Shown: positions 4,833 to 16,050, counted from the stretch's first letter. The stretch: DNA of 49,054 nucleotides from Thomasclavelia sp. (GCA_020024765.1 JAHHTG010000001.1:1-49054); one strand, 5' to 3'. Numbers and translations: made by a program. The notes: generated by a model from the sequence alone, not told the origin.

Positions 4833-6122
4833 TTAAATCAAGGATTTTAGGCTATTTATCATCATTGCAATGATTTCTTTGTCTGTCTCTTTCATACCTT
4901 CTTTAGCTAGGCGGCCAATGTTGCTAATTGTACTTTCAGCACCCTTTGCAGTTAAACCGTCACCTGCTTTAAATTCGTTATGACGTAAATACATATTGTA
5001 TCCAAGTAGGCCTGCATCAACTGCCGATTGAATCTTAGCAGCGCAACTTGGTTTAGCACCATCACACACAGTACCTGAGATAATGCCAAGACCATTCACA
5101 ACAGTATGTGCTACTGCTTCAAAACTATGTGTTTCTAAATACGCAATTCCTGCACCAGCACCAATGCCAGCACTAACTGCGCCACAATATGCACTTAAAC
5201 GACCAATCCCACTCTTTTGATGGATAGTACATAAATCGCTAACACATAATGCACGATAGATTTCTTCTTCACTATAGCCGTTATCACGACCATACACAAC
5301 AACTGGTACAGAAGAAGTAATACCTTGATTACCACTGCCTGAGACAATGATAACTGGTAATTCACACCCACTCATTCGGGCGTCACTTCCAGCAGCGGCA
5401 TAAGCCTTAGCGCGAATCATTGTATCGTTACCATAAGTCTTTAACAAAGTCTTGCCGATATTAGCTCCCCAATCATTACGGATACCTTCTTCAGCAATCG
5501 CCATATTAAAATCAATTTGTGGATCTAAGTATGGTTTTACATCATTTACATCTACGATATCAGCAAATTCCACGATGCTTTTAATATTTAAACAACTTTT
5601 ATCACAAACATCTTCTTTAACTTCTTGAACACCTGTATCTAAGATAACTTTATCATTCTTGGAAGCATAGACAATATTTGTATGATAGTTGACAATACGA
5701 GCCTTAACGATATCATTATCCTTTTTTAAAGTGATAATCATATCAAAAATATGGCCTGATTCTAATAAACCAACTTTAATTTCGTGTGTTTCAGAATATT
5801 CTTGAATTTTAGCGACATCTTCGCGACTTACTTCCGCAATTACTTCAAGTTGTTTAGCACTTACACCGGCTACAAGTCCAGCAGAAACTGCAGCACCAAT
5901 TCCCTTCATGCCACCGGTATTTGGCACAACAACACTCTTAACATTTTTTAAAAGGTTGCCACTCACATCGATCTCAACACTTTCAGGCAAATCGCCTAAA
6001 ATATCACGGGCATAACTTGCTAAATAAGCAATCGCAATTGGCTCTGTACAACCCATTGCTGGTAATAATTCTTCTTTTAAAATTCGAAGATATTGATTAT
6101 AAATCGCATCATGTCTTTCCAT
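4833..6122 (-). CDS. cyuA: UPF0597/YhaM-type L-cysteine desulfidase (CyuA-like)
   Basis: 429 aa. The N-terminus ...ILKEELLPAMGCTEPIAIAYLAS... matches the conserved GCTEPI motif of the YhaM/CyuA family. Confidence 0.75.
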   Translation of the reverse strand: MERHDAIYNQYLRILKEELLPAMGCTEPIAIAYLASYARDILGDLPESVEIDVSGNLLKNVKSVVVPNTGGMKGIGAAVSAGLVAGVSAKQLEVIAEVSREDVAKIQEYSETHEIKVGLLESGHIFDMIITLKKDNDIVKARIVNYHTNIVYASKNDKVILDTGVQEVKEDVCDKSCLNIKSIVEFADIVDVNDVKPYLDPQIDFNMAIAEEGIRNDWGANIGKTLLKTYGNDTMIRAKAYAAAGSDARMSGCELPVIIVSGSGNQGITSSVPVVVYGRDNGYSEEEIYRALCVSDLCTIHQKSGIGRLSAYCGAVSAGIGAGAGIAYLETHSFEAVAHTVVNGLGIISGTVCDGAKPSCAAKIQSAVDAGLLGYNMYLRHNEFKAGDGLTAKGAESTISNIGRLAKEGMKETDKEIIAMMINSLKSLI

Positions 6123-6133
6123 ATTTCACCTCA

Positions 6134-7093
6134 TCAACAATTACTTAAATATTCTTGATCATCAATCTTGCTAGCCTTAATTGCATCAATGATCGCAAGC
6201 TGCATCACTTTTGCAGCTAATGTCCCGATGACATTGATATCAGCCGGATGTTCGCCTACACTACAAGCGTAAATTGTATCGCCATCCGCCATTGTGCCAA
6301 CCGGGTCAATACTCCTAGCATACCCATTTCGCGCCATATTTGCAATCTTTGAAAGCTCAGCTTTATTGAATTTTGCGTTAGTCACTACTACACCTAAGGT
6401 TGTATTTGCCTTTTCGTTACTGTGATTTGGTAAATAACCTAAGGTATTTTCAAAACTTAAATAACTCTTACGTTCGTGATTTAATACACCTGCAATTTTA
6501 TTACCGTTAGTATCAAAAATATCACCAAGCGCATTAACAACGACAATAGCGCTTAAATAAATATCACCAAAATAAATTGTATAGACACCAAGACCTGCTT
6601 TTGATGCTTGTTTCATACCCAACAATTTGCCAACGGTTGCACCAACACCAGCTCCAATATTACCATGAGCATCGCTTGTACCTTTTAAAGCCTTTTCGCA
6701 AGCTTCATAGCCCATATTGGCATCAGGTCTAACATCAGCCTTGCCATAGCTTAAATCATAAATACATGAGCCTAAAACAAGTGGTACACAAGCACAATTA
6801 GTTTCAAGTCCAATAGCGTGTTTTTCTAAACATTCCATAACACCTTGTGAAGCCGCTAAACCATAAGCTGAACCACCCGCTAAGACAATCGCATTAACAG
6901 GATTATCAGCAGTTAATGGTGTTGCAAGAGGTGTCTCACGTGACGCTGGTCCACCTCCACTTATATCAACACCTACACAAGCGCCATTTTTAAAATAAAT
7001 TACAGATACCCCAGTTTTAGCTTCATCATTTGTCACGTGGTTTAAATTAAAACCATCAATCATTTCTAAACTAATCTTTTGATATAAATCCAT
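6134..7093 (-). CDS. P1/S58 family peptidase (DmpA-like L-aminopeptidase/D-esterase)
   Basis: 319 aa. Motifs GVSVIYF, SGGGPASRET, AIVLAGGSAYGLAA and ANTTLGVVVTN (self-processing nucleophile region) are typical of DmpA/BapA. Confidence 0.8.
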   Translation of the reverse strand: MDLYQKISLEMIDGFNLNHVTNDEAKTGVSVIYFKNGACVGVDISGGGPASRETPLATPLTADNPVNAIVLAGGSAYGLAASQGVMECLEKHAIGLETNCACVPLVLGSCIYDLSYGKADVRPDANMGYEACEKALKGTSDAHGNIGAGVGATVGKLLGMKQASKAGLGVYTIYFGDIYLSAIVVVNALGDIFDTNGNKIAGVLNHERKSYLSFENTLGYLPNHSNEKANTTLGVVVTNAKFNKAELSKIANMARNGYARSIDPVGTMADGDTIYACSVGEHPADINVIGTLAAKVMQLAIIDAIKASKIDDQEYLSNC

Positions 7094-7131
7094 CTTGATA
7101 CCTCGTTTGTCTATATTTTAGCATTATTTAA

Positions 7132-7160
7132 AAGCCAAAAACGCCAAATTAATGGCGTTT
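7132..7160 (-). terminator. Rho-independent terminator of the arylsulfotransferase-like gene
   Basis: AAACGCCA-n6-TGGCGTTT (7139-7160) followed by a T-run on the minus strand. Overlaps the stop codon. Confidence 0.75.
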
Positions 7161-9099
7161 AATAAGTAATTGTATAAGTCGAATCATAAAGACTATTATT
7201 ATAGATATAACATAAACGATATGTGCCCTTGAGTCCTTCTGCGCTAACTGTTTGAATCATGAAGGATTCATCCGGTTTTGGTGAATTAAAAATAGCCACA
7301 CATGTGCCAGGTTCTTCATCGACTTGGAAAGGATAAACCAGCGCTTTATTGTCTTGAACTAGAACTAATTCAAGATTATCTTCTTTATGCAATAAACCTG
7401 AAACTACGATACGATCGGTTTCATCGACAAAAGTAATTGGCATAGCAACATTTAACTGCTCAACATTGATAAAATCATCATATTCTTTTAATAAATCACC
7501 AACCTTAATCTCTTTGTGTTTTGTCACGCCAAGGTTACCTAATAATTTTGAGTCTTCAAATGAAGTTGTTGTAAACTTCGTGACATCGATTTTTTCGGCG
7601 CGATAAATATTGCACGGAAACTTTAGTTCAAATACCAATTCACCATCTTGAATTTCAGAGATAAAAGCATCCATATGATCATGTGCAGTTAATGAACCAG
7701 GATCGTTATTGATTTTACCATTAAGATATGAGATACCACCCGAAGTCACCAAGAAATGATTATCACCTAGATAATCATTATCACAAATATATGGTGAATA
7801 ATATTCAAATCCACGCTCTTTGCCATATTGATAAACTTGTTCAATAGTATGGTTGGTTTCATCAACCTTATAAATAACCATGCGCGAATAGTTATCTTCA
7901 GCAGCTAAAGATTCAGCTTTAGTTTTAGAACGATACATACCATTATCAAAAACCATCAAGTGTTCACTATCAATCCAAGTTGCTGCATGTTGAGCCCATT
8001 GCCATTCAAATTCTTCACCAATCGGAGTTAAGAAATATGGGTGCATCTCTTCACTCCAATTATCATTTGAACCAATTAAATATTTTAATGCGCCACTATC
8101 GTAATCGATAACAGCTACAACATCTTGATGACGGCCCGAAACTGTAAGAGTGTTATTTGTGGGCTCGTAATCGACTGAATTATTGTGGAACCAGTCACTA
8201 GCAGTCCAATTTAAACTACGACCATCTTTTGTATCAAAGATATCTTTCAAATCGAAGGTCTTAACAACGTTACCAGTCTCACAATCAACTTCTACAATAA
8301 CATCTTCTACGGTTTTGCCATTGAAATCATCACTGCAAACCAAGAAATTACCATTCGGCAATTCATCGATATCATGGTGATAGCCACCAGGTAAACGATA
8401 CTCACTTTCGATATGGCCTAATAAATCCATCGTCACAAAACCAGTTGTGTAATACGGACTATTAATAATGCGATCACTACTTAAAACAAGTTTGCCATCT
8501 TTTAGTATGTTGACATCCCAAAAATGTGCCGATGATAAGATAAATCTTAAATCACCATTGCAATCATAAGCCGAAACATGACCATTACTGCTAGGTGTTG
8601 TAAAATATAGTTCATTATGATTTTCTATTAAATTCTTTTGTGTTACTTCTGGTAAATAAACATCTGCTGGTAATTCATGTGCCATAACTTCATGTGTGAA
8701 GATTTGATTATTAACCTTAATTTCTACAGTTGTCGGTTGATCAGATAATAAACCAACAATCGGTAAAATATGCTTAGTACTTGGTTCAAAATTAAAGATT
8801 AAATCAGCAGCGGTTGTTTTACCTTTGACAACCATTTCAATTGGAAATTCACTATCAGTTTCAAATTCTATAATTGCCGAAAGTGGAGCCATACCATATG
8901 GATCGACAATGATAATTGGTTCTTCCAAAGTACCACCATTCAGTTGTTCAACTAAGACTTCTGTTTTATCCTTTTGAGCCAGCATCGTAGTTGGTTTCAT
9001 CTCTAAAGATTGGCCTTCAATTTCAAATTCATAAGGTTTTTGGCAAGCGGTTAAAACTAATCCCAATAGTAATAAAAGTGCGATAAGTTTTTGTCTCAT
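7159..9099 (-). CDS. Arylsulfate sulfotransferase (ASST)-family lipoprotein
   Basis: Start moved to ATG 9099 (SD AAAGGAGAAG upstream). MRQKLIALLLLLGLVLTAC is a signal peptide with a lipobox. The GGYHHDIDELPNGNFLV and WFHNNS blocks are typical of the ASST beta-propeller. Confidence 0.75.
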   Translation of the reverse strand: MRQKLIALLLLLGLVLTACQKPYEFEIEGQSLEMKPTTMLAQKDKTEVLVEQLNGGTLEEPIIIVDPYGMAPLSAIIEFETDSEFPIEMVVKGKTTAADLIFNFEPSTKHILPIVGLLSDQPTTVEIKVNNQIFTHEVMAHELPADVYLPEVTQKNLIENHNELYFTTPSSNGHVSAYDCNGDLRFILSSAHFWDVNILKDGKLVLSSDRIINSPYYTTGFVTMDLLGHIESEYRLPGGYHHDIDELPNGNFLVCSDDFNGKTVEDVIVEVDCETGNVVKTFDLKDIFDTKDGRSLNWTASDWFHNNSVDYEPTNNTLTVSGRHQDVVAVIDYDSGALKYLIGSNDNWSEEMHPYFLTPIGEEFEWQWAQHAATWIDSEHLMVFDNGMYRSKTKAESLAAEDNYSRMVIYKVDETNHTIEQVYQYGKERGFEYYSPYICDNDYLGDNHFLVTSGGISYLNGKINNDPGSLTAHDHMDAFISEIQDGELVFELKFPCNIYRAEKIDVTKFTTTSFEDSKLLGNLGVTKHKEIKVGDLLKEYDDFINVEQLNVAMPITFVDETDRIVVSGLLHKEDNLELVLVQDNKALVYPFQVDEEPGTCVAIFNSPKPDESFMIQTVSAEGLKGTYRLCYIYNNSLYDSTYTITY

Positions 9100-10702: not shown

Positions 10703-12178
10703 TTAGAATGAAATGCAACTATCAACAGCATGTTGCCATCTTGCATATAATGTTTCAGCTTCTTTAGACGAAATTGTTGGCTCAAATTTCGTACTCTTGC
10801 CGACTTTAAAATCTTCTTTTTGGTAAATACCACACGCAAGGCCAGCAAGCCGAGCTGCACCCAAAGCTGTGGCTTCATTGGATTCTCCACGTACAACTGG
10901 AATACCTAAGATATCACTTTGGAAAGCTAATAAGAAATCGTTGGCACTTGCACCACCATCAACTTTTAGCTCATTAATCTTAAGTGATGAATCTTGTTCC
11001 ATGATATCAAGCAAATCTTTACTTTGATAAGCCATTGCTTCTAGAGAAGCTCTTACAATATGACGATAATCACAGCCTCGCGTTAAACCGAAGATTGAGC
11101 CCTTACAATTCTTATTCCAATAAGGAGCACCAATTCCGGTAAAAGCCGGAACAATAATAACGCCCTCACTCGATTCCACAGATTTAGCGATTTCTTCTGT
11201 CTCACTGGCTTTTTTTATAATCCCTAGTCCATCTCTCAACCATTGAATTAAACTGCCAGAAACGAAAATACTGCCTTCTAGTGCGTAATTGACTTGGCCA
11301 TTAATGCGCCATGCAACAGTTGATAATAAGCCATGGTTGGAATTAACAATATCTTTACCGGTGTTCATCAATAAGAAACCGCCAGTGCCATAAGTATTCT
11401 TAACATCGCCTTTTTCAAAACATGACTGACCAAATAAAGCCGCTTGTTGGTCACCACAAATAGCGTTAATTGTACAGCCACCCTCATAATTAAAGAAATG
11501 GTGTGGTTTAACATGAGCAATGTCACCAGCGGTATCAACAACTTTTGGCAAAATACGACGTGGGATATTAAATAATTCCAATAGTTCATCATCCCAATCA
11601 AGTGTATGAATATTAAACAGCATGGTTCTTGAAGCGTTAGTTACATCAGTGACATGAGCTTTACCACCACTTAATTTCCAAACTAGCCATGTATCAATTG
11701 TCCCAAATAAAATGTTAGGGTTATCTTTAACACCCGGTACTTCTTCAAAAATCCAATTAATTTTAGATGCACTAAAATATGGATCGAGAACTAATCCAGT
11801 CTTTTCACGAACGATTGGTTCATAACCTAATTTGCGATATCTATCGATAATATCGCTTGTTTGACGTGATTGCCAAACAATCGCTTTTGTAACAGGCAAA
11901 CCGGTTTCTTTATCCCAAATAACAGTTGTTTCTCTTTGGTTTGTGATTCCAATGGATTTAATTTGGCTAGGACTAATACCAGCAACTTGTACCACTTCCG
12001 CCATAACTACTAAAGTTGATAACCAAATTTCATTGGCATCTTCTAAAACCCAACCTGGATGAAGATAAAATTGTTTAATTTCTCTTTGGGCCATTTGTAC
12101 AACATTTTGATTTTTATCGAACAATAAAGCACGAGTACTTGTTGTACCTTGGTCAATAGCTAAAATATATTTTTCCAT
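10703..12178 (-). CDS. glpK: Glycerol kinase
   Basis: MEKYILAIDQGTTSTRALLFD..., GITNQRETTVIWD and DGGASAN are FGGY-kinase/GlpK signatures. The PHHFF loop resembles the HPr-phosphorylated loop of Firmicutes GlpK. Confidence 0.96.
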   Translation of the reverse strand: MEKYILAIDQGTTSTRALLFDKNQNVVQMAQREIKQFYLHPGWVLEDANEIWLSTLVVMAEVVQVAGISPSQIKSIGITNQRETTVIWDKETGLPVTKAIVWQSRQTSDIIDRYRKLGYEPIVREKTGLVLDPYFSASKINWIFEEVPGVKDNPNILFGTIDTWLVWKLSGGKAHVTDVTNASRTMLFNIHTLDWDDELLELFNIPRRILPKVVDTAGDIAHVKPHHFFNYEGGCTINAICGDQQAALFGQSCFEKGDVKNTYGTGGFLLMNTGKDIVNSNHGLLSTVAWRINGQVNYALEGSIFVSGSLIQWLRDGLGIIKKASETEEIAKSVESSEGVIIVPAFTGIGAPYWNKNCKGSIFGLTRGCDYRHIVRASLEAMAYQSKDLLDIMEQDSSLKINELKVDGGASANDFLLAFQSDILGIPVVRGESNEATALGAARLAGLACGIYQKEDFKVGKSTKFEPTISSKEAETLYARWQHAVDSCISF

Positions 12179-12183
12179 GATTA

Positions 12184-14760
12184 TTACTCCTCATCATCAA
12201 GATATTTACTAATTTCAGCTAGAGGCTGATTTGAAATTTTAATTTGTTTAGATTGGTAATCTTTCGCATTATTTTGGAAAGCACGAACCATTTCTAAGTA
12301 GAAGGTATGGGAAACTAACCGACGCGCACCTTTTGAGAACGTTACGATTTGTTCTAGATAATCAGAAGTCACAACACTCACGCGATAATTTTTAGCGTAT
12401 TCGTTTAAATGACCTTCGATATAGGCGTCAGCTGTTTCGTTTTCTTTAGTAAAGACAATTTCAATATTGTCATACTTGTGCTTTGATACAGCTCTCCCTT
12501 TAACTTTATAGGCATCAAAAACGACAATGGCTTTAAAATGTTTATAGGCGCTAAAGTTTGCAACCAAATCAAGTAATCGCATTCTTGCTAAAGCCAAATC
12601 TTCACTCGCCAATTTCTTAAATTCATTATCAGAATAAATGACGTTATAAGCATCAATTAAATATAACTCAGGCAAGCCACTCTTGATGGTTACTGTTGCA
12701 TTATTCGAGATATCAACCTTAGGTTTAATGGCTGGAATATACTCTTTATTCTTTTTAGTTGGACAGGCTTTTTCGAAAACTCGACGAACTTCTTCGTCAT
12801 CAATAGTGTATTTGCGATGAGCTTCAACTTTTTCTGGTTTCTTAATTGTTAAATCAAGTGGTTCAATGTGAGCATAGTGTTTAACTTCGTAATATGGCAC
12901 ATAATAACCAGCGCCATGGATGCAGAACACAGAACCTGTCGGATGTTCGAGATCTTGTTCAGAATCATAGTTGATATTCATTAAGATTTCTTCTTGATTA
13001 ATAGCTACTTGATAATTTTTAAAACTTAAAGTTAAGCGACCTAAACCACGACTATAGTTATTCACTTCTTTTTGGTATTGTTGAATATAACGTGCTGGAG
13101 CTTCACCAGTCAAAACGGCATAATCTTCATTGCTGGTCGGATCATTGTAAGTGCCGTTCATTTGTTCGACATCATAAATAGCTTTACTTAATAAATTGTT
13201 TGGCAACTCTAATCTAAATTCATAATATGGTTCAAGAATAATTCCTTGGGCTTCTTTTAACCCTTGACGAATAGCGCGATTTAAAGCTTCCTTGAAGTCA
13301 CCACCTACAGTATGTTTTAAGTGACCTTTCCCTGCAATTAAAGTAATACGAATATCTGTGACTTTTGAACCGGTTAATGTTCCGACAATGTCGTCACTGT
13401 TAAAGGCATTCACAATTGCGGCTTGAAATGGTTTTGATAGTAAATGTTCAGGCACAATGTTCTTAAATTCAATACCACTGCCAGGCGCTAATGGTTCAAT
13501 CAATACATGGACTTCTGCATAATGTCTTAAAGGTTCGTAGTGGCCAACACCCACAACTGGACTTGCAATTGTTTCTTCAAATTCAACATGGCCTTCACCA
13601 AATTCAACTTCAAGGTGATATTGTTCAAAAAGACGTCGTTTTAAAACTTCGACTTCAATTTCACCCATTAAAGATAAATTAACAGTTCTTTGGCCTTTAA
13701 TATATTGAATACCTAGCCCCGGATCTTCTTCTTGTAATTCACTCAAGCATTTATCAACCACATTCAAATCTTCGTTATCATTAAAAGTCATTTGATAACG
13801 CATAAATGGTTGAAGTTTTAGATGGTTATCACCTTCATTTAATGGTAATTCTTCACCTGCCATAATCGTTTTTAAACCTTTAATAGCACCAACTTCACCC
13901 GCTGTTAAAATTTGCGTTGTTTCGTATTTGTTACCCGAATATAAACGAATTTGATCGACCTTTTCATGTTCTTTAAGTTCGGTTTTTACTCTTAAATGTC
14001 CACTTAAAACTTTTAGATGGACTAAACGAATACCTTCCTCATGACTAACCTTAAAAGTTCTTGCCTTAAATTCATCATTATGAATAATTTCGTGAGTATA
14101 AACATTGATAAGATTCAACAATTTATCAATACCTTGATTCTTTAAAGCTGAACCAAAAAGACACGGATACATCTTCATCTCATTAAATAATTCTTTGATG
14201 TTTTCATCTAAAACCTCGCCAGTTTCGAGATATTGTTCAAGAAGATTTTCTGAACATAATGCAATATTTTCATAAAGTTTATCATCATGATCACTAAAAT
14301 CAACAACGTGCTCCGATAAATTATCTTGAAGATCTTTTAGAATTTGACCTTTACTTAAATAACTAATATCCATCTTATTGGCAAAGATAAAAGTTGGAAC
14401 ATGATAATGATTTAAGAGCTTCCAAACAGTCTTCGTGTGGCTTTCGACACCTTTAGTACCATTAATAACTAAAATAGCATAATCTAAAATTGATAGGGAT
14501 CTTTCCATCTCTAAAGAAAAGTCGATATGTCCAGGTGTATCAATCAAAGTAATATTTGTATTTTCATAATCAAAAATTGCTTGCTTAGAAAAAATCGTAA
14601 TCCCACGATCACGTTCTTGATTATCAAAATCAAGGAAAGCCGTTTTATGATCAACTCGTCCCAACTTCTTTAAGTGACCCGCTTGATACATCAAACTTTC
14701 TGCAAGTGTAGTTTTGCCAGCATCGACATGTGCCAATAAACCAACGACAATGTTCTTCAT
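12184..14760 (-). CDS. Fusion protein: EF-G/TetM-family translational GTPase (N-terminal ~640 aa) plus YacP/Rae1-type NYN ribonuclease domain (C-terminal ~163 aa)
   Basis: Uninterrupted 858 codons from ATG 14760. G1 AHVDAGKTT, G2 RGITI, G3 DTPGH, G4 NKMD. EF-G domain IV/V-like sequence follows (GSKVTDIRITL..., ILEPYYEF). After a K/E-rich linker come LYLIDAYN, VVFDAY, ETADAYIE and VVTSDYLEQ, the YacP NYN motif series. The track start at 14838 adds 26 implausible residues that overlap the divergent gene. Confidence 0.85.
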   Translation of the reverse strand: MKNIVVGLLAHVDAGKTTLAESLMYQAGHLKKLGRVDHKTAFLDFDNQERDRGITIFSKQAIFDYENTNITLIDTPGHIDFSLEMERSLSILDYAILVINGTKGVESHTKTVWKLLNHYHVPTFIFANKMDISYLSKGQILKDLQDNLSEHVVDFSDHDDKLYENIALCSENLLEQYLETGEVLDENIKELFNEMKMYPCLFGSALKNQGIDKLLNLINVYTHEIIHNDEFKARTFKVSHEEGIRLVHLKVLSGHLRVKTELKEHEKVDQIRLYSGNKYETTQILTAGEVGAIKGLKTIMAGEELPLNEGDNHLKLQPFMRYQMTFNDNEDLNVVDKCLSELQEEDPGLGIQYIKGQRTVNLSLMGEIEVEVLKRRLFEQYHLEVEFGEGHVEFEETIASPVVGVGHYEPLRHYAEVHVLIEPLAPGSGIEFKNIVPEHLLSKPFQAAIVNAFNSDDIVGTLTGSKVTDIRITLIAGKGHLKHTVGGDFKEALNRAIRQGLKEAQGIILEPYYEFRLELPNNLLSKAIYDVEQMNGTYNDPTSNEDYAVLTGEAPARYIQQYQKEVNNYSRGLGRLTLSFKNYQVAINQEEILMNINYDSEQDLEHPTGSVFCIHGAGYYVPYYEVKHYAHIEPLDLTIKKPEKVEAHRKYTIDDEEVRRVFEKACPTKKNKEYIPAIKPKVDISNNATVTIKSGLPELYLIDAYNVIYSDNEFKKLASEDLALARMRLLDLVANFSAYKHFKAIVVFDAYKVKGRAVSKHKYDNIEIVFTKENETADAYIEGHLNEYAKNYRVSVVTSDYLEQIVTFSKGARRLVSHTFYLEMVRAFQNNAKDYQSKQIKISNQPLAEISKYLDDEE
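12187..12675 (-). other. NYN (YacP/Rae1-like) nuclease domain portion of the fusion ORF
   Basis: LPELYLIDAYNVIYSD...AIVVFDAYKVKG...FTKENETADAYIE...VSVVTSDYLEQIV. The acidic residues expected of PIN/NYN metal sites are all present. Confidence 0.75.
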
Positions 14761-14826
14761 AAGTATAATTATAAACGAATAAATGACTTTATGATAGAAT
14801 GGATACAACGAAAATAGGAGGAACTT

Positions 14827-16050
14827 ATGAATCCACAAGTTTATACAAATTATGCCAAGTTAGTCATCAAATATGGCATTAACTTACAAAAAGGCCAAGA
14901 TGTTGTCATCTATTCTTCAACACGTGCAGTAGAATTTGCAAAATACATTCTTGAAGAAGCTTATTTAGCCGGTGCAAGACACGTTCGTGTTGAATTAAAT
15001 GATGAAAAGATTGACTACTTAACTTACAAATACTGCGATGAAAAGGTACTGGGTGAAGTTTTACCTTATCAAGAAGCAAAAGCAAAACACGATGCTGAAA
15101 CATTGCCTTGTAAAATCTATATCGAAGATGAAGACCCAGATGTCTTTGCAGGTTTAGATGCTAATAAGATTTCAAACGTCCGTAGCATGCGCTACAAAGT
15201 CATTAAAAAATATCGTGATATGGAAGACAATAATGATCAATGGATTATTGTAGCCATCCCTTCACCATCTTGGGCTATGAAAGTTTTCCCAGGACTTAGC
15301 GAAGAAGAAGCTATTGCTAAAATGTGGGAAGCAATTATCCATACAGCACGTCTAGAAGGTGATGCTCTAGCAAACTGGGATAAACACGTTAAATATCTAA
15401 ATGAAAAAGCACAAAAGATGAACGCTCTTAACCTTGATTATCTACACTATACTTCTAGTAACGGTACTGATTTAAAACTTCATTTACAACCAAATCATGA
15501 GTGGATTTCGGCTCGTGAAACAAATCTTAAAGGTGTAAGTTTCATTGCGAACATGCCAACAGAAGAAGTTTTCACAATGCCTAAACGTGATGGAGTTGAT
15601 GGGGTTGTTTACTCAACTAAACCATTATCGCTAAATGGCCATGTCATCGAAGATTTCAAAGTGACATTTGAAAAAGGAAAATGTGTTGATGTGCAAGCAC
15701 GTGTTGGCCAAGAAACTTTAGAAGCTATGTTAAATATGGACGAATCTTCACGTCATTTAGGTGAAGTTGCATTGGTTCCATACAATTCACCGATTAACGA
15801 AACAGGCTTATTATTCTACAACACGCTTTACGATGAAAATGCTGCTTGTCACTTAGCATTTGGTCAAGCTTTCAAAAACGACATCCGTGGTTATGAAAAT
15901 ATGACTGATGAAGATTTTGAAAAAGTTGGTTTCAATAATTCTCTTAATCACGTTGACTTTATGGTAGGTTCAAAAGACTTAAATATCGTTGGTTATGATT
16001 TTGAAGGAAAAGCACATCAAATCTTCAAAGATGGTAATTGGGCTATCTAA
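14827..16050 (+). CDS. M29 family aminopeptidase (AmpS/PepS type)
   Basis: 407 aa. YAKLVIKYGINLQKGQDV..., EEVFTMP and HLAFGQAF are typical of thermophilic-metalloprotease M29. SD AGGAGG upstream. Confidence 0.88.
   Translation: MNPQVYTNYAKLVIKYGINLQKGQDVVIYSSTRAVEFAKYILEEAYLAGARHVRVELNDEKIDYLTYKYCDEKVLGEVLPYQEAKAKHDAETLPCKIYIEDEDPDVFAGLDANKISNVRSMRYKVIKKYRDMEDNNDQWIIVAIPSPSWAMKVFPGLSEEEAIAKMWEAIIHTARLEGDALANWDKHVKYLNEKAQKMNALNLDYLHYTSSNGTDLKLHLQPNHEWISARETNLKGVSFIANMPTEEVFTMPKRDGVDGVVYSTKPLSLNGHVIEDFKVTFEKGKCVDVQARVGQETLEAMLNMDESSRHLGEVALVPYNSPINETGLLFYNTLYDENAACHLAFGQAFKNDIRGYENMTDEDFEKVGFNNSLNHVDFMVGSKDLNIVGYDFEGKAHQIFKDGNWAI

Follow-up and report, generated by a model that had tools for sequence, protein, structure and literature searches.

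Our main finding is that a gene in a 49,054-nucleotide stretch of DNA from Thomasclavelia sp. (GCA_020024765.1, JAHHTG010000001.1:1-49054; the whole of this stretch is called the window below) joins in one polypeptide a translational GTPase of the elongation factor EF-G type and an endoribonuclease domain of the Rae1/YacP NYN type, and that, at the level of sequence, the single-chain arrangement and both catalytic centres are strongly conserved among homologues. The window protein is a divergent, Erysipelotrichia-type member of an already known and uncharacterised fusion family, in a genome of 34% G+C. We propose that it would act as a single-chain, ribosome-targeted, GTP-gated endoribonuclease of the Rae1 type, cutting messenger RNA (mRNA) on stalled or collided ribosomes and feeding rescue by transfer-messenger RNA (tmRNA), a proposal to which we give about an even chance of being right.

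Translation of positions 12184 to 14760 on the minus strand yields 858 uninterrupted codons followed by a stop, and recovers every motif that had been quoted in an initial annotation of the window. The gene product has five parts: the GTPase with its domains II to V, a C-terminal extension, a tether and the NYN domain (Table 1). Its G domain carries the motifs G1 AHVDAGKTT, G2 RGITI, G3 DTPGH (with the catalytic histidine H78), G4 NKMD and G5 GSAL, which together are the G1 to G5 set and the catalytic His after DxxG that characterize the EF-G/EF2-type superfamily. Conservation was examined in a library clustered at 50% identity, from which the best 150 representatives (all with E<=3e-159) and the query made up a set of 151 sequences. 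The G motifs are kept in 137 to 151 of these, the lowest value being that of S204 in G5 (137). In the GTPase centre, D13, G15, K16, T55, D74, G77, K129 and D131 are each present in all 151, and H78 in 150.

The remainder of the GTPase part has the five-domain architecture G-II-III-IV-V, as the initial annotation had read it from EF-G/TetM-like motifs: Pfam GTP_EFTU, EFG_III, EFG_IV and EFG_C all match, the last three above their cut-offs, and both AlphaFold2 and Foldseek agree. The Pfam EF-G_D2 match is weak in the window protein (0.0019) and significant in homologues. An AlphaFold2 model built from 26 family members, with a mean predicted local distance difference test (pLDDT) of 76.9 and a predicted template modelling score (pTM) of 0.54, shows an EF-G-like body up to residue 586. 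When this model was compared with the PDB by Foldseek, the best matches were EF-G structures (E about 1e-53), many of them ribosome-bound, with TetM lower in the list; the top 50 matches were all EF-G family members or TetM.

The C-terminal part matches Pfam NYN_YacP (PF05991) over aa 701-845 (aa, amino acids), at 3.5e-40 and with 138.1 bits where the gathering score is 24.6; the match spans positions 2-148 of the 166 in the model. The NYN fold is seen at aa 698-838 of the AlphaFold2 model. Against all PDB sequences, this part matches Bacillus subtilis YacP/Rae1 only (5mq8/5mq9, 5e-17). The acidic residues that had been expected at the metal site are indeed there: D7, D53, D81 and D104 of Rae1 align with D703, D749, D778 and D800 of the window protein. 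These four are kept in 146, 147, 146 and 148 of the 151 representatives, respectively, and the shortfall comes mostly from members without the domain. Catalytic residues of the GTPase and of the NYN domain are thus each kept in at least 96% of the 151 representative clusters. In Rae1 itself, a D7N D81N mutant is inactive (PMC10351889).

Rae1, the sole characterised NYN_YacP member, is a translation-dependent mRNA endonuclease; it works on ribosomes that have stalled or collided, and supplies tmRNA with substrates (PMC12407103; PMC13622287). The initial annotation took Rae1 to cut at the ribosomal A site; this model, derived from a docking in 2017, has since been replaced by its own authors, who place the cut 12 nucleotides (nt) upstream of the A site (PMC12407103). 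The revision dates from 2025-26 and puts the cut, at about that distance, at the tail of stalled or collided ribosomes; according to Tetreault et al. (2026 preprint), Rae1 makes tmRNA substrates on collided ribosomes (PMC13622287). There is no ribosome-bound structure of Rae1, because its binding is transient (PMC13622287), and neither Deves et al. nor Tetreault et al. mention the GTPase fusion.

Whether the architecture was already catalogued had been left open by the initial annotation. It is not new, and has been on record since 2015 and 2017. Atkinson (2015) described Tet-subfamily proteins with a YacP-like NYN domain in ten Clostridiales species and suggested a resistance linked to the ribonuclease (RNase) (PMC4342817), while Matelska et al. 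(2017) recorded, for some Clostridia, a fusion of NYN_YacP with a TetM-like domain, without settling its function (PMC5499597). The window protein answers to both descriptions, being one polypeptide with a Tet/EF-G-like GTPase at its N-terminus and NYN_YacP at its C-terminus. The literature searched gave us no account of the NYN-less forms described below, of the invariant signatures in domain IV or of the conserved extension at the C-terminus; nor did we find in it statistics on the tether, the absence of conserved neighbours, a spread over at least 600 species, or the RefSeq mislabel.

The family is widespread. A search of 5.8 billion proteins returned more than 120 clusters (90% identity) with the same Pfam set and full-length coverage. 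RefSeq members, named 'translation factor GTPase family protein' or 'NYN domain-containing protein', occur in Thomasclavelia spiroformis and Longibaculum muris, and full-length identity between the window protein and the RefSeq Thomasclavelia and Longibaculum members is 45-48%. A scan of one genome per species with two family-specific domain IV patterns matched at least 600 species, which belong to the Clostridia and Erysipelotrichia. The best 80 loci include Lachnospiraceae, Oscillospiraceae, Ruminococcus, Faecalibacterium, Flavonifractor, Desulfitobacterium, Anaerovorax, Holdemania and Merdibacter, and the copies of Agathobacter rectalis (933 aa) and Monoglobus pectinilyticus (862 aa) show every family signature. 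The NYN domain is present in 146 of the 151 sequences and, fused, at all 80 best loci, with no stop or frameshift splitting the open reading frame (ORF) in independent assemblies, so that the single fused ORF of the initial annotation holds.

A few members naturally lack the nuclease. In P0262 (642 aa) and P0269 (634 aa), the sequence stops within a few residues of the end of the conserved extension; both keep the domain IV loop 1 signature, P0262 keeps the tip-loop signature as well, and the P0262 cluster counts 53 members on many long, independent contigs. No NYN gene lies downstream of the NYN-less members, and a split-gene (Rosetta-stone) version of the fusion was rejected on this ground. 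The existence of such members indicates that the GTPase and its extension form a self-standing module, to which the nuclease is an add-on in most members. Two other candidates, P0239 and P0259, were rejected as frameshifted or chimeric gene calls: after the C-terminal extension, one runs out of frame and the other runs into a class IV aminotransferase.

Between the EF-G-like body and the nuclease lie two segments of very different character. The first, of about 45 aa, is structured at aa 589-630 in the AlphaFold2 model (pLDDT 74-86) and has, across the 151 representatives, the consensus Y-D-x3-D-x2-N-P-x-G-S-V-F-C-x-H-G-A-G-x2-V-P-W-x-E-V-x3-M-H. No Pfam family matched it at aa 589-635, and a 30-sequence profile of it found nothing at E<=10 among PDB sequences. 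The second corresponds to the K/E-rich linker of the initial annotation and is a disordered tether rich in K, E and R, with pLDDT below 50 at aa 639-654 and 665-694. Its length across the representatives is about 34-116 aa (median 58). Since it is disordered, variable in length and charged, we regard it as a leash rather than a rigid interface. It contains one short helix (aa 655-665; nt 12766-12798, minus strand) with the family motif ELxxIFERTYG; the conserved segment around it (aa 653-667, about nt 12760-12804) reads DDEEVRRVFEKACP in the window and may mediate docking to the ribosome or to either of the two enzymatic modules.

Two loops of domain IV distinguish the family from its relatives. 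Loop 1 is family-specific and takes the place of GGRGQ in EF-G and of PPNPFW in TetO/TetM; its near-invariant consensus is G-x-G-H-[FY]-E-P-L-[RK]-H-Y-A-E-V (GHYEPLRHY in the window protein), and its residues are kept in 125-151 of the 151 representatives, R412 being the lowest (125). The tip loop has the near-invariant consensus H-x-K-H-T-E-G-G-D-F. In it, H480 aligns with H573 of Thermus thermophilus EF-G, the conserved tip His, and is a histidine in 132 of the 151 representatives. The window protein carries both signatures, as well as the SVFCxHGAG..VPW signature of the extension. Taken as a whole, the GTPase part is nearly equidistant from its relatives (full-length scores of 248 bits for TetO, 245 for TetM and 236 for EF-G), and domain IV alone is closest to T. 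thermophilus EF-G (39.6 bits, against 31.7 for TetO and 27.4 for TetM).

EF-G-type factors bind the ribosomal GTPase-associated centre and put domain IV in the 30S A site, and their C-terminus, as in the structures of EF-G and TetM, turns back towards domain IV, near the decoding centre. On this basis, the EF-G-like body in its GTP form would dock at the factor-binding site of a stalled ribosome, or of one that has collided behind it; both are geometrically plausible, because the tail of the stalled ribosome is the mRNA entry side of the collided one. The domain IV loops private to the family would then probe, or read, the state of the A site. Because domain IV itself fills the 30S A site, delivery of the NYN domain into it is sterically unlikely. 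Shut out in this way, and held on a leash of some 60 residues, the nuclease would cut the mRNA at the edge of that ribosome; a tether so long and flexible suggests that cleavage takes place at the periphery of the ribosome. The cut would leave a truncated, non-stop message to be resolved by tmRNA, and GTP hydrolysis would release the factor. The GTPase would in effect exchange the weak, transient ribosome binding of free Rae1 for gated, state-specific binding, and the protein as a whole would, we infer, serve mRNA surveillance. The initial annotation had likewise read the fusion as a means of bringing the nuclease to the ribosome under GTPase control: the fusion is real and conserved with both catalytic centres intact, while delivery to the A site is unlikely, domain IV occupying that place.

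What is seen of the free enzyme in related bacteria may bear on the same idea. The tail that follows the NYN domain has a median of 13 aa in fusions versus 35 aa in the free Rae1 of Clostridioides difficile, the long basic tail being mostly gone. C. difficile has the canonical cysS-mrnC-rlmB-NYN locus with a free rae1; in M. pectinilyticus (NZ_OY725739.1, 3965-5529) rlmB is followed by a metallophosphoesterase gene, without a free rae1 or NYN gene. The fusion is the only NYN match among the records of this organism examined, and may be its sole NYN_YacP protein. The shortened tail and the Monoglobus locus without rae1 are weakly consistent with a GTPase that has taken over ribosome targeting.

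Several points weigh against the proposal of an mRNA-cutting surveillance factor. The substrate (mRNA, ribosomal RNA (rRNA) or transfer RNA (tRNA)), the ribosomal state recognized and the position of the cleavage are all things that we infer. The GTPase core has a function of its own, as the NYN-less members of 634-642 aa show, and this need not be nuclease delivery. The AlphaFold2 model, with its pTM of 0.54, shows no docking of the NYN domain onto the GTPase body, so the geometry between the two is unconstrained. Finally, a functional study of any fusion member was not found in the full-text literature searched.

It is conceivable, if rather doubtful, that the GTPase core represents a new functional class among the translational GTPases of bacteria, a sensor of stalled or collided ribosomes, and that together with the NYN domain it would form a one-protein, GTP-gated no-go-decay machine, replacing free Rae1 in some Clostridia. 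The marks of such a class would be the EF-G-like tip His, the unique loop 1 rich in His, Arg and Tyr, the private C-terminal extension, and the existence of members without the nuclease.

A different target, rRNA or tRNA, is in our view unlikely but has a number of arguments behind it. The GTPase would here test a 70S or an immature ribosome, and the NYN domain would trim or cleave rRNA, either in maturation or in disabling or decay under stress. In eukaryotes, the PIN nuclease Nob1 is helped by the GTPase eIF5B, and EF-G-like GTPases of ribosome assembly exist (BipA, LepA, Efl1). The ribosome tail, where Rae1 acts, adjoins the 3' end of 16S rRNA, and the NYN-less members imply a ribosomal role of the GTPase itself. 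Moreover, free rae1 resides in an operon related to rRNA and tRNA (cysS, mrnC, rlmB, NYN; PMC5499597), and members of the NYN family were first predicted to be processors of rRNA or tRNA (PMC4342817). Nevertheless, the sole NYN_YacP enzyme that has been tested cuts mRNA, not rRNA, and rRNA-processing genes never adjoin the fusion gene in the 80 loci.

Placement of the nuclease in the A site by the GTPase, with cleavage of the A-site codon in the manner of RelE, seems quite improbable. The return of the EF-G-type C-terminus to the vicinity of the decoding centre, where the extension (aa 589-635) follows, is in line with it, as is the 2017 model quoted in PMC12407103, in which Rae1 was originally docked in the A site. 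Yet the authors of that model have moved the cleavage to 12 nt upstream; there is no room in the A site for both domain IV, which occupies it, and the nuclease; and a disordered tether of 34-116 aa would be needless for a site a few angstroms away.

The fusion could also be a tetracycline ribosomal protection protein with an accessory RNase, as was suggested by Atkinson in 2015, when fusions were placed in the Tet subfamily; we consider this very unlikely. Its appeal lies in the full-length comparisons, in which TetO and TetM are the best matches, and in NCBIfam, which ranks tet_protect first. The scores fall far below the curated cut-offs, however: 375.1 bits versus 775 for tet_protect, 281.7 versus 1100 for the Tet(M/W/O/S) model (tet_protect_M_W) and 242 versus 1420 for Tet(M). 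EF-G TIGR00484 gives 259.6 bits versus a cut-off of 659.4, and the window protein therefore belongs to neither equivalog. EF-G is nearly equal to the Tet proteins at full length and higher on domain IV alone. At the tip, GHLKHTVGG aligns with LYYSPVSTP of TetO/TetM, so that the drug-dislodging YSPVS loop is absent. The TetO and TetM alignments end at query aa 587-588, past which the Tet C-terminal helix is replaced by the unrelated conserved extension of 45 aa. The gene is chromosomal and vertically spread, without a mobile-element context. The caution voiced in the initial annotation, that HLKHTVGGDF in place of YSPVS should keep this protein from being labelled automatically as tetracycline resistance, was justified, and is needed in practice: the A. 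rectalis fusion (NZ_CP143948.1, 5093-7894; WP_306784676.1, 933 aa) bears the RefSeq name TetM/TetW/TetO/TetS family tetracycline resistance ribosomal protection protein. Its scores are likewise below the cut-offs (262 bits versus 1100 for the Tet M/W/O/S model, 389 versus 775 for tet_protect), and on these scores the name is probably a misannotation.

Also very unlikely is a stress toxin or anti-phage effector that would shut down translation by cutting RNA on ribosomes, as ribosome-dependent RNases such as RelE do. One A. rectalis copy adjoins a BrnT/CopG toxin-antitoxin pair; against this, PADLOC defence models gave no match, and the ORFs within 4 kb, clustered over the 80 loci, revealed neither a conserved partner or immunity gene nor a setting in a defence island. 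Two records labelled 'phage' carry the gene; both are marked unverified, and the one inspected (MT835563.1, 'UNVERIFIED: Bacteriophage sp.', 5397-8024), in which an 875-aa fusion stands beside NAD(P)H-hydrate dehydratase and citrate-transporter genes, resembles a fragment of a high-G+C bacterial chromosome with housekeeping genes rather than a phage. An assembly or frameshift artefact joining two genes, for which the few chimeric database entries (P0239, P0259) might speak, is effectively refuted by the recurrence of the full-length fusion as the same continuous ORF in independent assemblies and isolate genomes from at least two classes of Bacillota.

Table 1. Positions of the fusion gene, of the parts of its product and of related features (window coordinates unless a locus is named)
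Feature	Position	Strand	Basis or remark
Whole coding sequence: translational GTPase fused to NYN nuclease	12184..14760	-	Translation, Pfam, homologue lengths
G domain, aa 1-225, reduced G' insert	14086..14760	-	Pfam GTP_EFTU aa 4-221, 4.9e-50
Domain II beta-barrel, aa 232-310	13831..14067	-	AlphaFold2 strands 232-294
Domain III, aa 318-388	13597..13809	-	Pfam EFG_III 8e-07, 29.5 bits versus cut-off 27
Domain IV, aa 391-505	13246..13590	-	Pfam EFG_IV 4.7e-15
Domain IV loop 1 signature GVGHYEPLRHYAEV, aa 404-417	13510..13551	-	Alignments, 151-sequence conservation
Domain IV tip loop GKGHLKHTVGGDF, aa 477-489	13294..13332	-	Alignments, conservation
Domain V, aa 508-586	13003..13239	-	Pfam EFG_C 2.9e-15
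Family-specific C-terminal extension, aa 589-635: helix, beta-hairpin, short helix	12856..12996	-	AlphaFold2, conservation
Disordered K/E/R-rich tether, aa 636-697, about 60 aa	12670..12855	-	AlphaFold2 pLDDT <50
Rae1/YacP-type NYN endoribonuclease domain, aa 698-845	12226..12669	-	PF05991, PDB 5mq8/5mq9
Glycerol kinase gene glpK, downstream	10703..12178	-	Starts 5 nt past fusion stop
NYN-less family members, 642 and 634 aa	L087 2679-4607; L089 4638-6542		

The start of the gene was placed at ATG 14760. A mechanical ORF call reaches upstream to TTG 14838 (884 aa), within the start and ribosome-binding region of a divergent M29 aminopeptidase gene (14827-16050, plus strand). Because of this overlap, and because homologues with 99% and 82% identity begin at the same Met-Lys as ATG 14760, the TTG was rejected as an ORF-calling artefact. 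No Shine-Dalgarno sequence precedes ATG 14760. A perfect TATAAT lies at 14768-14773 (minus strand), exactly 7 nt 5' of the ATG, and is identical in the 82% homologue; judged from these elements, the mRNA of the fusion gene may be leaderless. In a 46%-identical homologue there is instead a leader some 26 nt long, which carries a weak Shine-Dalgarno sequence. The intergenic space (14761-14826) is only 66 nt long and shared with the divergent peptidase gene, and an upstream regulatory leader was rejected on this ground.

Around the fusion gene, the divergent M29 aminopeptidase gene is followed by genes for ZIP and SNF transporters, and on the downstream side glpK, a GH77 glucanotransferase gene and an arylsulfotransferase gene lie on the same strand. 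The Shine-Dalgarno sequence of glpK, GAGGAG, falls inside the last codons of the fusion ORF (12179-12200), and given this and the 5-nt gap the two genes are probably co-transcribed; they might also be translationally coupled. This layout is common to the 82%-identical homologue and is not seen in more distant ones, which makes the glpK linkage a lineage-specific trait outside the family design. Unrelated genes flank the 46%-identity homologues as well as the copies of Lachnospiraceae and Monoglobus, and fusion genes reside in chromosomal, housekeeping-type contexts. A mobile or resistance context was rejected: the plasmid matches are very large, non-mobilizable records that resemble mislabelled pieces of chromosome. 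The helix-turn-helix neighbours mentioned in the 2017 literature were not recovered in the 80 loci. The commonest neighbours within 4 kb are a MATE-like efflux transporter (12 of the 80 loci) and an ABC exporter (6 of the 80), frequencies above our guess of chance in a set of loci that are, however, phylogenetically related. Such neighbours are of interest in that B. subtilis Rae1 controls the mRNA of the bmrCD multidrug exporter.

No further NYN or EF-G-like gene occurs in the window, and no tRNA, tmRNA or known RNA element was found near the fusion gene. At gathering score, a single Rfam family matches in the window, the ribosomal protein L21 leader (RF00559, 4720-4791, minus strand; 42.2 bits versus a gathering score of 36). 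Among the 38 window ORFs of at least 150 aa, 31 are on the minus strand; the plus strand has 19.4% C versus 15.0% G, a GC skew of about -0.13, at an overall G+C of 34%. Orientation and skew fit a piece of chromosome in which genes and replication run in the same direction.

It is an open question how Rae1 locates and engages ribosomes that have stalled or collided, and the fusion offers a tractable handle on it: GDPNP or an H78 mutant could lock it on ribosomes, making the engagement of Rae1 directly testable. If the GTPase core is indeed of a new class, it would provide a natural means of trapping a Rae1-type nuclease on ribosomes so that the complex could be studied structurally. Because the family is common in the dominant gut Firmicutes (Lachnospiraceae, Oscillospiraceae, Faecalibacterium, Ruminococcus and Erysipelotrichales), the function of the fusion bears on translation quality control in much of the human microbiome. 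Moreover, mislabelling fusion genes as tetracycline-resistance determinants could inflate resistome counts.

Among known systems, the SMR nuclease collision sensors SmrB (E. coli), MutS2 (B. subtilis) and Cue2 (yeast) would be functional analogues, in that a nuclease is brought to stalled or collided ribosomes. They differ in having an SMR rather than an NYN fold and an ABC/MutS ATPase rather than a translational GTPase, and in binding the 30S-30S collision interface, not the factor-binding site. MutS2 is itself a nuclease domain fused to an NTPase, yet it does not cleave mRNA (PMC13622287). With EF-G, the window protein shares the five-domain fold and the catalytic His, and its H480 aligns with the tip residue H573 of T. 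thermophilus EF-G; it departs from EF-G by HYEPLRH instead of GGRGQ in loop 1, by a shorter G' insert, and by the added extension, tether and nuclease. Tet(M) and Tet(O) resemble it in the size of the GTPase part and in having a reduced G' insert, and they give the best full-length sequence scores, whereas the window protein scores under all NCBI Tet cut-offs, has neither the YSPVS loop nor the Tet C-terminal helix, has a domain IV nearer to that of EF-G, and is encoded off mobile elements.

Rae1/YacP (5mq8) has the same NYN_YacP fold and the same catalytic Asp residues (D7 and D81, equivalent to D703 and D778), and probably shares the chemistry and the action on ribosome-bound mRNA. Rae1 stands alone as a protein of about 170 aa; its gene belongs to the cysS-mrnC-rlmB operon, and the protein binds ribosomes only transiently. 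The NYN domain of the window is instead the C-terminal part of an 858-aa protein, tethered to a GTPase, mostly devoid of the long basic tail, and encoded in an unrelated context between the M29 gene and glpK. The closest relatives are the TetM-like/NYN_YacP fusions of 2015 and 2017, with which the window protein shares an identical domain order and every family signature. Nothing in kind separates them; the window protein is a divergent, Erysipelotrichia-type member, and the family, for which ten species were counted in the literature, now spans at least 600.

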